The notes under the pieces were generated by a model. The model made no database searches, was not told the DNA's origin, and worked only from the letters and a program-made list of their open reading frames with translations. The position numbers and the translations under genes were made by a program. From Candidatus Micrarchaeia archaeon (GTDB taxonomy: Archaea > Micrarchaeota > Micrarchaeia > Anstonellales > Anstonellaceae): DNA of 64,000 bases. The stretch is from the NCBI GenBank assembly GCA_041663445.1, contig JBAYMR010000008.1:662-64661 (forward strand). The letters are read 5' to 3'. How positions within the stretch are numbered: the stretch's first letter is position 1; each line of letters starts with the position of its first letter. Positions 1 through 15,689 of this stretch are shown here, piece by piece.

Positions 1-3000
1 ACGGCATCTATTCCGACGAGTTCAACACAACAGTGAAGAACTGCAACATAAGCAACTTCGCAACTGGCATATACTTCAACGGAGCGACGAACGGCATGAT
101 ACAGAACACGAACACAAGCACAACGAAAACCGCGAGTGGAACAGACGGATATGCGATATATCTTCTCCAATCAAACAACATCACGGCAATGGGCTCAATA
201 GCAAACGCATTAGACGGCATTGGAATTTACGTCTCATCGACAAACAACAGCATAATAAGCGGCATCACCGCCACAATTGCAGGAACAACGAGCGATTACA
301 GAAATCCAATCATCTTGTACTTGACACGCAACAACATAATAGCAAACAATACCTTAAGCAACACGGGAACAATGCATAGCATAGGAGTACTTTCAAGCTC
401 AAATAACACAGTCATAAACAACACCTTTTCAAGCAGAGGCTCGCAGGCATATATAGATTCAGGCGCCTCAGGCAACACCTTCTGCCTGAACAACTTCACC
501 AGCATCGGCAACCCGACAACATACGTCCAAGACCTTAACGGCTCCAACTACTACAACTGCACCTACGCAACCAAGAACCAGGGCAACATGTATGCGAACG
601 TGATGAACGGCAGCATCCAGGTGCTGGGCACGACAGTCTCATCATTCCCAAGCCTTTACATCGGCTCTGCGGGCGCGGGCTTCCCATACAACAATTCGTC
701 TTCCGGAGGCAAGTTCGTCTGCAGCTTCGCAGGATGCGCGGACTTCGCGCCCCTCACTCCAGTCTTCCTTCTGCTCAGCACCCCATCCTCATTGGCAGTT
801 TCATCAGTCACCGACCAGCCGCTAAACTCGCAGCTCGGTGAAATGAGCCTTTCATGGGGCGCGAACAGCAACCCCGCCGGCACTGTCTACGAAGTCAACG
901 AAACAATCTCCGGCCAGACCGTCTCTTCCAGCACAGCGCTCAACTTCACGCACACCGGATTGCTTGACAACACTCAATACTGCTACAAGGTGCGCGCAAC
1001 GCTTGGCGGGCAATATTCCAACTACACATCTGCAATATGCAACATCACGTTCGACAGGACCGCGCCTGCAACTCCCAACCTGCTTCCGGGCAAGCGCGGG
1101 CTAGTCGCCTACTACAAGCTCGACGACGGAAGCGGCACGAGCGCGGCAGACAGCGCGTACAACAACACGGGTGCAGTGTCCGGCGCCACCTGGACAAGCG
1201 GCAGGGTGAACGGCGGGCTTTCATTCAACGCAGTTGACAACTATGCGTATGCAACTGTGCCTGGCATACTGACCGACCCAACAATTTCCTATACTCTTGA
1301 AAGCTGGGTGTCCCCAAGGGTAAATACCAACTCCAGCGAGCACATGGTCGTTGGCAAGGTAGGCAGGCACGGCGGCATACTGTCTACTTCGAGCAGTGGC
1401 AGCACCATTCAGTTCAGATTCCAGTATGTGAACAATGCCAGCGGATGGTTCAGCATCATAAGCAGCGCAGTTCCGCTTGACAGCTGGCATCATGTCGTGG
1501 CAACATACAACGCTACAAACAAGGAAATGAAGCTCTATGTTGACAATGTGCTCGCAGGCAGCGCCAACTTCACCGGAACTCCAACTTCATACGGCTCAAC
1601 ATTGTACCTGGGCGGCTATAGCGGGGCCACCAGCAAATACGGCTTCAACGGCTCGATTGACGAAGTGAAAATCTACAACCGCGCGCTCACCGCAACCGAA
1701 GTAGAGGAAGACTACAACAACTCCGTGGCGTACGTCAGCTTCACGGAAGGCGACAACGGCCTGCAGCTTTACATGCCGTTTGAAGAGGGCGCGGGCGCAA
1801 CGACTGCGGACTGGTCGCCAAACGCGAATGACGGCACGATAACGGGCGCGACTTGGACAAGCGGCAAGTTTGGAAACGCAATGAGTTTTGATGGCAGTGA
1901 CTATATTACTGCACCAAACAGCAGCATCCCGGTTGGAAACGCAATCACAGCCAGTTTCTGGGCATACGGCGCGGATGCCCTGCCTGCCAACACTGCGGCA
2001 ATAACCAGTTCAAACGCAGGCGGATACGTCATAAATGTCCATCTTCCTTGGAGCAATGGATTCGTATATTGGGATTGCGGTAATAATGGGGCAGCCTATG
2101 ACAGAATCTACAAAGCGGCAAATGCTTCCGATTACAAGGGAAGATGGACCTACTGGACTTTCACAAAAGACGCATCCACGGGAGAAATGAAGATATACAT
2201 TGATGGCGTGCTCTGGCACAGTGAAACCGGCAAAACAATGCCAATTCCCGCGGCAACATACCTAAGGATAGGGCAAGCATACCAAGGCAAAATAGACGAA
2301 TTGCGCATCTACAACCGCTCGCTTTCCCAGCACGAAATCATAACCGACATGCAGTCCGGGCTGATAAGCAAGGGGCTTTACAGGAGCAACACGACTACTG
2401 GCATCTACACGCCGGTGAATGGAACTTTCGAAGACTTCTCCTCCGGCAGCGACAGCGCATGGGTCAAAAACGGCGGCACCTGGAATGTAAGCGGCGGAAG
2501 CTACATATCCCCCACTTCTGGCGAAGTGGTGAGCGTAACCGGCGACCCTGCATTGGCCGACTACGTGGTGGAATCCGACTTCGAGATAGTGAGCGGCAAC
2601 CATGCCAGCCTCATCTTCCGCTCCCCCAACATCAACCAGTTCTACCAATATGAAATATACGGCGGCACCAACTCCCTCAATGGCGGCAACATCAACCTCT
2701 ACAAGTATAACTCCGGCTACTCCAACCTTGCAGTTACCGACATTGCCGACCTGAGCTACAATACCTGGTACCATGCCAAGGCAATCGTGAGCGGCAATGT
2801 CATCAAGCTGTATCTCAACGACGTGCTCCTGATGACCTATGCCGACTCGTCCTCGCCCTATCTTGCCGGCAAGGCGGGCGTGGGCACGCACTCGGCTGCC
2901 AGTATCTTCGACAACTTCAAGGTCACCCCGTTCATCTCCTCGCCCAATTACACCGACAATGGCGCGCGCGACGTTTCCGTGCCAATGACGCCAGCGCAGC

Positions 3001-14642: not shown

Positions 14643-15689
14643 GTGGTTGTCATGGTGAAATACACGATAGACCGGCGGTTTTCCCCCTTCTTCAGGGAAC
14701 GCGGAAAGGACAAGCTGGGAAAGCTCCTCGGGTATGCGGGCATAGACACCAACCCGAACATATGGTTCGGCTCGCGCCTCCTCGCAGTGCTCCTATTCGG
14801 AATAGTGGGCGTGCTCATCCCGTTCTCCCTCTTCCCATATCTTGACCTCAAGGATTTCGGGCTGCTTGCTGACACGGCGTTCACTACGCGGCTGCTTGTG
14901 AGCTTTGCCTTCGGCCTGGCATTCTCCCTCGCCACTGCCCTCCTCTTTTACATGCACCTGTATTACCTGATAAACGAGCGCGCGCAGCGCGTGGATGCCA
15001 TACTGCCGGATTTCCTTCTCATAGTTTCCGCAAACCTGCGCTCGGGCATGACGCCCCAGGCGGCGTTCCAATCATCAGCGCGCCCGGAGTTCGGCCCTTT
15101 GCAGACGGAAATAATATATGTCTCGTCAATTTCCATGGGCAACGAGTCGTTTTCCGAGGCATTGAAGGAGCTTACCACTACGATTGACAGCGCCATCCTG
15201 CGCCGCGTCGTGATATTTTTTGAAAACGGGCTCAAGGCCGGCGGCAAGCTCGCCTACCTGCTTGAGACGTCCGCGGACGAAATCCGCGAGACCGAGGAGA
15301 TGAAGCGCCAGATGATGATAAACGCGAAGACCTATGCCGTGTTCGTGGCGTTCATCCTCATCCTCGGGCTTCCGCTGCTGCTTGCCATCTCCACTCAGTT
15401 CATGACGGTGTTCTCCAAGGTGCAGGGGAGCATCGGCAACACCGGCTCGACAGCCTCGATAGGAGGCATCTCCTCGCCAAAGATGAACATTGACGTGAAA
15501 TTCATCAACCAGCTGTCCTACGTCCTGATAATCGGGAACTCCATCTTCACCGCCATCCTTGTGGGCATCATCTCGCGCGGGAAGGTGCTCTTCGGCCTGA
15601 AATACGCGCCCCCGCTTGCGTTTGCCGCGCTGTTTTTCTTCCTCATATTCAAGACATTAATCGGCGGGTTCCTCTCGGCGCTGGCATAA
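14643..15689 (+). CDS. Second polytopic membrane protein with a single T2SSF-type platform domain
   Basis: 348 aa, 3 nt after the previous gene. The soluble segment ILPDFLLIVSANLRSGMTPQAAFQSSARPEFGPLQTEI...ALKELT resembles the GspF/TadC repeat. GTG start at 14643, or ATG at 14652. Confidence 0.7.
   Translation: MVVMVKYTIDRRFSPFFRERGKDKLGKLLGYAGIDTNPNIWFGSRLLAVLLFGIVGVLIPFSLFPYLDLKDFGLLADTAFTTRLLVSFAFGLAFSLATALLFYMHLYYLINERAQRVDAILPDFLLIVSANLRSGMTPQAAFQSSARPEFGPLQTEIIYVSSISMGNESFSEALKELTTTIDSAILRRVVIFFENGLKAGGKLAYLLETSADEIRETEEMKRQMMINAKTYAVFVAFILILGLPLLLAISTQFMTVFSKVQGSIGNTGSTASIGGISSPKMNIDVKFINQLSYVLIIGNSIFTAILVGIISRGKVLFGLKYAPPLAFAALFFFLIFKTLIGGFLSALA

Follow-up and report, generated by a model that had tools for sequence, protein, structure and literature searches.

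At the start of a 64,000-nt stretch of landfill metagenome DNA (hereafter the window; GenBank assembly GCA_041663445.1, contig JBAYMR010000008.1, positions 662 to 64,661 of the forward strand), a giant open reading frame (ORF) is followed by genes for a type IV filament ATPase and for two platform proteins, F1 and F2. Our results suggest, with a probability that we place at roughly 0.62, that this region is the 3' (downstream) half of a conserved Micrarchaeota type IV pilus (T4P) operon, that a huge and fast-evolving gene for a lectin-like surface protein is embedded in this operon of a DPANN archaeon, and that the giant protein would be a PilY1-like, pilus-associated, hypervariable host-binding adhesin, the putative specificity determinant of an episymbiont's attachment pilus.

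The genes are arranged in the order giant ORF, ATPase, F1 and F2, all on the plus strand, followed by an AbiE pair on the minus strand and a threonyl-tRNA synthetase (ThrRS) gene on the plus strand. The features of the pilus-related part are the following.

3..8252, plus strand: variable N-terminal part of the giant gene, 5'-truncated at the end of both the window and the contig
8340..11789, plus strand: conserved C-terminal core of the giant gene
11836..13581, plus strand: type IV filament assembly ATPase of the FlaI/GspE2/CpaF family, 581 codons as called (Pfam T2SSE, 7.1e-35)
13582..13742, plus strand: spacer between the ATPase gene and F1, 161 nt, unusually long and GC-rich
13743..14639, plus strand: platform protein F1, 298 aa, one T2SSF domain (2.7e-12), three predicted transmembrane segments, a TadB/TadC-like half platform
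14643..15689, plus strand: platform protein F2, 348 aa, one T2SSF domain (2e-11), four to five predicted transmembrane segments

Domain organization of the giant protein

An initial annotation, made from the sequence alone, had described an ORF that is already open at the window start, ends at 11789 and encodes beta-helix, laminin G-like (LamG) and Cys-rich parts, and all of this was confirmed. The frame is open from nt 3 to the first stop codon at 11787-11789, giving 3928 codons with no start in view. Pfam searches with the translated protein recovered six Laminin_G_3 stretches (8.9e-135) and seven Beta_helix/NosD stretches in three blocks (1.5e-50 and 2.6e-44), together with one concanavalin A (ConA)-like 3keto-disac_hyd domain and a weak fn3 match; DUF2341 (PF10102) gave no Pfam match, the protein matching Laminin_G_3 instead. 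The Cys-rich block, with 72 cysteines at residues ~2780-3330, matched no Pfam family. N-x-S/T sequons are abundant (123 seen versus ~75 expected from composition), and no hydrophobic segment, C-terminal membrane anchor or sorting signal was found in the visible part of the protein. Numbered by residues of the visible ORF, the domains are arranged as follows.

Variable part, 2-199: beta-helix
Variable part, 413-567 and ~646-774: LamG
Variable part, 818-975: 3keto-disac_hyd
Variable part, 1358-1495: LamG
Variable part, 1591-2020: beta-helix
Variable part, 2026-2191: LamG
Variable part, 2296-2750: beta-helix
Core, ~2780-3330: Cys-rich block
Core, ~3335-3500: jelly-roll resembling a carbohydrate-binding module (CBM)
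Core, 3520-3660 and 3762-3909: LamG

A beta-helix cap module with the pattern G[IV]YS..FNTT[VI]KNCNI, located by a regular-expression search, occurs in four copies at residues 1, 1592, 1762 and 2210; a self-BLAST of the protein printed no internal matches at E < 1e-8. The AlphaFold model of the C-terminal core (mean pLDDT 71.8) resembles the carbohydrate-binding domain 4 of AbnA, laminin LG4-5, the LNS domain of neurexin and the lectin-like half of tetanus toxin Hc, and the core is thus predicted to fold as lectin-type LG/LNS jelly-rolls. Searched against a collection of 5.8 billion proteins, the first 1000 aa gave domain-level matches only, the best of them with 42% identity over 25% of the query, and with the last 629 aa as query the matches were contig-edge fragments only.

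The filament ATPase and the split platform

The GspE/FlaI-family ATPase and the two half-size platform proteins of the initial annotation were likewise borne out by Pfam matches to T2SSE and T2SSF. The distance of 46 nt that had been given between the giant gene and the ATPase gene holds for the ORF as called; since the orthologues are 576 aa long and start with MIETK, the true start is probably at 11851 and the gap 61 nt. Among PDB entries, the ATPase matched best Archaeoglobus fulgidus GspE2 (2OAP; 2e-68, 234 bits), FlaI (3.5e-53) and CpaF (4.9e-44, 154 bits). Orthologues with 47-95% identity are spread across Micrarchaeota and Iainarchaeota, and their alignment keeps the Walker A motif GGTASGKT. 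The NCBIfam FlaI equivalog scored 288 bits against a cut-off of 550, and the ATPase is therefore not an archaellum motor. Neither FlaH nor archaellins were found in the window or the related loci, and the platform is split in two, a composition unlike that of an archaellum.

F1 and F2 are 3 nt apart and score 47.2 and 44.4 bits with the T2SSF model (Pfam cut-off 25.2). A BLASTP comparison of the two detected no similarity between them, a PDB sequence search with F2 returned nothing, and NCBIfam searches with F1, F2 and the pilin-like proteins described below gave nothing but weak TafC-type LamG matches. The spacer that precedes F1 contains GGCAATC-type direct repeats, a perfect 8-bp hairpin (13593-13611) and a further, imperfect direct repeat of 26 nt (13595-13620 and 13705-13730), and it may serve in regulation or processing; in relatives the same gap ranges from 2 to ~230 nt and is mostly shorter than in the window.

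The large gene and its prepilin-like neighbours in related genomes

Orthologous loci were gathered by an exact-protein look-up, one scan of species-representative genomes and one metagenome scan seeded with a pilin-like protein, and they were annotated by our own ORF calling, BLASTP and the class III signal-peptide motif (L-numbers denote related contigs). The ATPase-F1-F2 set was kept in every orthologous locus whose contig extends that far, with a two-gene platform in nearly all. At 72-94% ATPase identity, which we refer to as the window's clade, a homologue of the large protein is encoded upstream of the ATPase in all 13 of the related contigs that have upstream sequence, and this synteny with the pilus machinery makes a functional link plausible. 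The sizes of the large proteins are as follows.

Complete: 814 aa (L090), 830 aa (L092/93), 1252 aa (L013), 1287 aa (L008), 1464 aa (L003), 2726 aa and 2990 aa
Cut: >545 aa; >1845, >2541 and >4766 aa, all three cut by contig ends beside ATPases more than 90% identical to that of the window; the window itself, >3928 aa

The longest of them (L097:1-9932, 93% ATPase identity) was called at 4766 residues and is still open at the contig end, and the true size range of the family therefore exceeds any complete copy seen.

The machine had initially been called pilin-less. This description does not hold for the relatives L003, L008, L013, L090 and L092/93, in which prepilin-like genes precede the large gene, four to six in total where the contig extends further. 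The upstream proteins start with MKG↓QLSVE.., ..LG↓QMLSTE.., ..RG↓VFLSLD.. or ..SA↓QASAE.., a class III pattern, in some cases with Glu at +5. The gene just before the large gene encodes a protein of 497-690 aa with the start ..(K/R/Q)G↓FTFTIS...(L)FSQEW and a CBM-like C-terminal domain; the FTFTIS start was read in L003, L013, L090 and L092/93, and L008 shows the C-terminal end only. Further upstream are a protein of 346-388 aa (..RG↓VFLSLD..), which in its 346-aa form carries a Laminin_G_3 domain (2.3e-24), and pilin-like proteins of ~175-190 aa where called, of 130-139 aa and, one or two of them, of ~260-280 aa. Two of the prepilin-like genes thus encode modular pilins with a LamG or CBM-like module. 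The gap between the large gene and the preceding pilin-like gene is 4-30 nt. On two contigs with 93-94% identical ATPases and complete giant genes, the slot of the FTFTIS gene is occupied by a gene for 533 or 543 aa.

The large homologues whose N-terminus is visible (L003, L008, L013, L090, L092) mostly begin with short Sec-like signal peptides and not with class III ones. The idea that the giant protein is a hugely expanded pilin was dropped for the window's clade, given that the two are separate genes in L003, L013, L090 and L092; in L003, the pilin-like gene ends in a stop codon and the large gene restarts 9 nt later with its own signal peptide. It does hold for L091 (72% ATPase identity), in which a pilin-like protein and the CBM/two-LamG adhesin core are fused in a single ORF directly before the ATPase gene.

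No homologue of the giant gene was found in the loci with 46-61% ATPase identity, which include L004/5, L006 (Fermentimicrarchaeum), L010, L011, L015 (AR10), L016, L017 and L022. In these loci, three to five small prepilin genes stand directly before the ATPase gene on the same strand, with the starts MKA↓QSSIEF.., ..RG↓QS.., ..KG↓F.. and M(K/R)(K/R)G↓F...LFSQ, and a major-pilin-like gene beginning with KG↓QGTTEYLIILAV often follows F2. The machine is therefore not dedicated to the giant protein. Machinery that is flanked by pilins and never by the giant gene had been named in the initial annotation as the pattern that would speak against the proposed link. This pattern is what occurs at 46-61% identity, whereas all clade contigs with upstream sequence have the large gene, so the relatives speak partly against such a link.

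Related arrangements were seen in other places. On L020 (46% ATPase identity), a gene convergent to F2 (13701-16043, minus strand) encodes a 780-aa protein that has LamG domains and begins like a pilin (KKA↓FLFTVVF), so LamG-pilin-like fusions recur outside the window's clade. A second, paralogous Micrarchaeota pilus locus is present on L045 (same genome as L003), L028, L044 and L069; it comprises an ATPase ~44-47% identical and without the first ~80 residues, a protein of 540-1133 aa, two T2SSF genes and a pilin starting with KKG↓QAAMEYLMTYGW.

Divergence of the large protein

Divergence is far more rapid in the giant gene than in the genes around it (~50-59% identity where the ATPases are 92-94% identical). 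Compared with L088, the window shows identities of 92% for the ATPase, 87% for ThrRS, 85% for F2 and 79% for F1, and of 59% for the C-terminal end of the giant protein. Compared with L097 (93% ATPase identity), the giant protein is collinear over the C-terminal 1700 aa only, at 50% identity, and the rest matches at domain level and out of order. The part common to all clade homologues is the Cys-rich/CBM/two-LamG core, with identities of 29-38% in L003, L008, L013, L090 and L092 and of 50-59% in the relatives with 92-94% identical ATPases. A putative adhesin that ranges from ~800 to >4700 residues and diverges several-fold faster than its surroundings between near-identical strains shows the pattern expected of a host-specificity determinant.

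Pilins and prepilin peptidase

The statement that no prepilin-type ORF is in view holds for the whole 64 kb. Two regular-expression scans of all ORFs of at least 40-45 aa in the window found no credible class III signal peptide, and no A24 prepilin peptidase (FlaK/PibD type) was found among the window proteins scanned, the only related find being a presenilin-type signal-peptide peptidase (28158-29120). A 217-aa membrane protein (49226-49879) was considered as a prepilin peptidase and rejected, as it has no Pfam match and no GxGD motif. The micrarchaeon 'Ca. Mancarchaeum acidiphilum' Mia14 has a single FlaK-like gene that lies apart from its pilus loci (Golyshina et al. 2017, PMC5498576), so the absence of such a gene from one window means little. 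That pilins are missing is most likely an artefact of the window edge: the first letters of the window already belong to the giant gene, which leaves upstream pilin genes out of view, and the pilin genes would lie just past the edge.

Proposed role of the giant protein

Judged by its sequence, the organism is an Anstonellaceae-like member of the Micrarchaeota, and the earlier guess at an episymbiotic archaeon was apt because this places it among the DPANN. The placement follows from an intron-containing tRNA and from the names attached to the ATPase relatives, which from 95% down to ~47% identity are labelled Micrarchaeota, Anstonellaceae, Fermentimicrarchaeum, Burarchaeum and Iainarchaeum. 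The tRNA in question is a 110-nt Rfam match (41.5 bits, 23804-23913, plus strand) that ARAGORN missed and that presumably contains an archaeal intron; an ordinary tRNA-Thr(CGU) lies at 25402-25473 on the minus strand.

The full locus would consist of four to six prepilin-like genes, the large Cys-rich/LamG protein, the ATPase and the TadC-like F1 and F2, sometimes with a major-pilin gene after F2, and the ThrRS gene would close it. In the proposed mechanism, the ATPase and the F1/F2 platform would polymerise pilins that are cleaved by a prepilin peptidase encoded elsewhere, and the minor, modular pilins would make a tip or priming complex. Sec would export the giant protein, whose conserved C-terminal Cys-rich/CBM/LamG core would attach it to the minor-pilin complex, and its long, strain-variable beta-helix/LamG N-terminal arm may extend outwards and bind glycans on the host cell or another surface. 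Few Micrarchaeota are in co-culture, and for the recognition and holding of hosts by DPANN archaea the locus offers a concrete candidate, namely a pilus with lectin-bearing minor pilins and an operon-embedded adhesin.

Several points weigh against this interpretation. The association of the giant protein with the pilus is a prediction from gene neighbourhood and sequence. The window itself contains no pilin, no prepilin peptidase and no 5' end of the giant gene, the layout being taken from relatives, and for the closest of these (93-94% ATPase identity) gene sizes alone are known. The prepilin calls are motif-based, the pilin-like proteins scoring 15-22 bits with Pfam Class_IIIsignal against a cut-off of 23.7, and the N-terminus of the large protein of L090 can also be read as class III-like. 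The visible giant protein has no anchor that would keep a Sec-exported protein on the cell. An AT-rich TATA-like box (TTAATAAA), read from the sequence ~20 nt before the ATPase start at 11851, suggests that the ATPase gene may have its own promoter. Finally, L003 and L013 hold one to three unrelated genes between the large gene and the ATPase gene, so that a direct coupling to the ATPase is not a conserved feature. These intervening genes are a minus-strand gene for a Por_Secre_tail protein in both contigs and also a HepT/MNT pair in L003.

The Por_Secre_tail proteins deserve mention in their own right. They are ~420 aa long (L003:7719-8972 and L013:8445-9704, both minus strand) and come from two independent Micrarchaeota metagenome-assembled genomes; in bacteria, this domain serves as the C-terminal sorting signal for type IX secretion, and it is odd in an archaeon.

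Alternative explanations

The alternative that survives best, which we nevertheless consider unlikely, is that the neighbourhood has no functional meaning and that the giant protein acts independently as an adhesin of the surface or the S-layer, its gene lying in a variable insertion hot-spot beside pilus genes. The junction is plastic, as illustrated by the AbiE pair in the window, the HepT/MNT pair and Por_Secre_tail gene in L003 and the Por_Secre_tail gene in L013, the LamG locus of Mia14 was placed on a genomic island (Golyshina et al. 2017, PMC5498576), LamG proteins are broadly expanded in DPANN, and a separate ATPase promoter would be in line with such an insertion. A mere hot-spot is difficult to reconcile with a slot between the last pilin-like gene and the ATPase gene that is kept in 13 of 13 clade contigs across 72-94% ATPase identity, with gaps of only 4-30 nt to the preceding pilin-like gene, with LamG and CBM modules of the same kinds on the pilin-like proteins, or with the fusion of a pilin-like gene and the adhesin core in L091.

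It is distinctly improbable, in our judgement, that the giant protein has a type IV filament machine to itself and that this machine truly lacks pilins or uses minor pilins only. It would be a pseudopilus resembling a type II secretion system (T2SS) or a bindosome, which would push or present the Sec-exported adhesin through the S-layer without any adhesive pilus. Such a machine would agree with the lack of a pilin gene in 64 kb, with the finding that neither the window nor the two contigs whose ATPases are 93-94% identical have a major-pilin gene behind F2, and with the upstream pilin-like genes of relatives, which look more like genes for minor or modular pilins than like one for a major pilin. 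The adhesin, with a Sec-type signal and without an anchor, would suit a T2SS substrate, and ordinary pili could be made by the paralogous second Micrarchaeota T4P locus, which has its own pilin. However, L088 (92% ATPase identity) and many of the distant orthologous loci have a major-pilin-like gene right after F2, the distant loci do without the giant gene, and T2SS-like secretion is not known from archaea. It is, moreover, common in archaea for major pilin genes to stand alone at other places in the genome (Makarova et al. 2016, PMC4858521). That the filament machine mainly presents or secretes one hypervariable giant lectin, exported by Sec and then docked on or pushed by a short filament of modular minor pilins through the S-layer, is similarly a long shot; if true, archaea would have an equivalent of a T2SS or of a tip-adhesin system, in which swappable beta-helix/LamG cassettes set the host to which the cell can attach.

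The integrity of the giant ORF was assessed with an independent Logan assembly of the source run, whose contigs match the window without any difference over 485-5308, 5285-9052 and 9037-15773. The linkage of the giant gene, ATPase, F1 and F2 therefore sits on one independent contig, the last of the three. A short Logan contig adds 13 in-frame codons (GKSIVGTNTSATY) before nt 1, in register with the cap module, and the giant gene therefore runs past the window edge. Within the window, nt 1-94 form a repeated module with a k-mer depth ~4-fold higher and ambiguous joins, and alternative Logan joins (60 to 5220; 5924 to 1) were seen; the contig ends at nt 1 because nt 1-94 are the first of the four cap-module copies. 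This repeat, the alternative joins and the breaks that the assemblies of relatives likewise show within the large gene would be compatible with a chimeric assembly, in which repeated beta-helix/LamG modules of several strains or genes were joined, but this is very unlikely, given the agreement of the Logan contigs, a reading frame uninterrupted across 11.8 kb and the relatives with complete 2726- and 2990-aa genes and a cut >4766-aa gene at the same site. More generally, apparently pilin-less loci at contig edges beside giant repetitive genes call for caution, since assemblies break inside such genes.

Other genes of the window

Our preferred reading, a pilus operon with an embedded adhesin gene, does not include the AbiE pair, which is outside the pilus system. 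The features downstream of F2 are the following.

15713-16555, minus strand: AbiEii toxin (Pfam 5.7e-22; 79.2 bits, cut-off 22.5)
16476-17135, minus strand: weak AbiEi antitoxin (AbiEi_4; 0.0012; 19.3 bits, under the cut-off of 25), overlapping AbiEii
17182..19086, plus strand: ThrRS, which by synteny marks the conserved downstream limit of the locus for the window's clade

The pair combines an AbiEii nucleotidyltransferase with an adjoining AbiEi regulator, as in an AbiE type IV toxin-antitoxin system. It was found between F2 and ThrRS in none of the relatives examined and is therefore a recent insertion at this site. In L088, the corresponding position holds a major-pilin-like gene (L088:4888-5517, MAKG↓QGATEYLVLLAVV; Pfam Class_IIIsignal 18.7 bits, under the cut-off), and the AbiE insertion may have replaced a pilin gene after F2.

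Elsewhere in the window, a low-GC island (40776-45560; 45-49% versus 55-60% around, with flanks at 38642-40723 and 45616-48513) lies between uvrB and uvrA and contains four glycosyltransferase genes, three of GT4 type and one of GT2 type; it looks like a horizontally acquired glycosylation cassette that splits the uvr genes. The uvrC gene is located at 49892-51493 on the minus strand. A gene for a homing-endonuclease-like protein with helix-turn-helix and LAGLIDADG_3 domains (58113-59072, minus strand) adjoins, and is divergent from, an MCM helicase gene (59067-61316, plus strand). An ORF of 831 aa (61387-63882, plus strand) has no Pfam match at E < 0.001.

Comparison with known systems

The Epd pili of Methanococcus maripaludis belong to the T4P class of the Methanococci, Methanobacteria and Thermococci. 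For this class, Makarova, Koonin and Albers (2016, PMC4858521) described loci with an ATPase, two TadC genes and at least five minor pilins, together with two large secreted ConA-like (DUF2341) proteins proposed as PilY-like tip adhesins. The same composition was found in L013, L090 and L092, and the window shows the adhesin, the ATPase and two TadC-like genes only. The likeness is one of gene composition. The adhesin here is of the Laminin_G_3/beta-helix/Cys-rich and not of the DUF2341 type; it is also far larger (>3928 aa, and >4766 aa in a relative) and hypervariable between strains.

PilY1 of Pseudomonas and PilC of Neisseria, tip adhesins of bacterial T4a pili, are large, Sec-signal-bearing non-pilin proteins encoded in a minor-pilin operon; a tip complex of minor pilins holds the conserved C-terminal part, and adhesion is the task of the variable N-terminal part. 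The homologues in L003, L008, L013, L090 and L092 resemble them as Sec-signal non-pilins in a minor-pilin operon. There is, however, no relation in sequence or fold, the C-terminus of PilY1 being a beta-propeller and that of the giant protein consisting of LamG/ConA-like jelly-rolls. By this comparison, the giant protein is a putative analogue of PilY1 and not a member of its family, an analogy that was likewise drawn for large archaeal adhesins by Makarova et al. (2016, PMC4858521).

PilC of Streptococcus sanguinis, a pilin with a grafted lectin module, is predicted to form part of a tip complex and binds host glycans (Shahin et al. 2023, PMC9934059). A similar design is seen in the L091 fusion and in two of the pilin-like proteins, the 346-aa one with LamG and the ~500-aa one with the CBM. 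That system is bacterial, and in the window's clade most of the adhesive mass is on a separate Sec-type protein. The bacterial Tad/Flp pilus likewise has a related ATPase, CpaF, and a platform divided between two proteins with one T2SSF domain each. In contrast, the window ATPase is nearer to archaeal GspE2 and FlaI than to CpaF, the organism is an archaeon, and neither an RcpA secretin nor TadZ nor a Flp pilin was found in the window or the related loci, so the locus does not have the make-up of a Tad pilus.

The SPEARE proteins of Nanohaloarchaeota are multi-thousand-residue, multi-domain proteins thought to mediate DPANN host contact. They contain protease and restriction-endonuclease domains, a domain content other than that of the giant protein, and they are not described as embedded in a pilus operon. 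LamG proteins, for their part, have repeatedly been proposed as DPANN adhesins. The closest published case from the same phylum is Mia14, which has two T4P loci, one of them of the class described by Makarova et al., and expanded LamG proteins, some of them at T4P loci, with a proposed role in host interaction (Golyshina et al. 2017, PMC5498576). It shares with the present locus the tie between LamG proteins and T4P loci; operon anatomy, giant size, pilin-adhesin fusion and an analysis of variability are not part of that report.

The initial annotation had held that a dedicated link between such a machine and a multi-thousand-residue adhesin is not an established system. This was overstated in view of the similar loci in PMC4858521 and PMC5498576: earlier publications cover both the linkage of LamG proteins with pili in Micrarchaeota and archaeal loci that combine two TadC genes with several minor pilins and large adhesins. 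What is added here is an adhesin that is extreme in size, contains beta-helix and Cys-rich modules, keeps a fixed position in the operon and varies strongly at strain level, together with the modular LamG and CBM pilins and the fusion variant.

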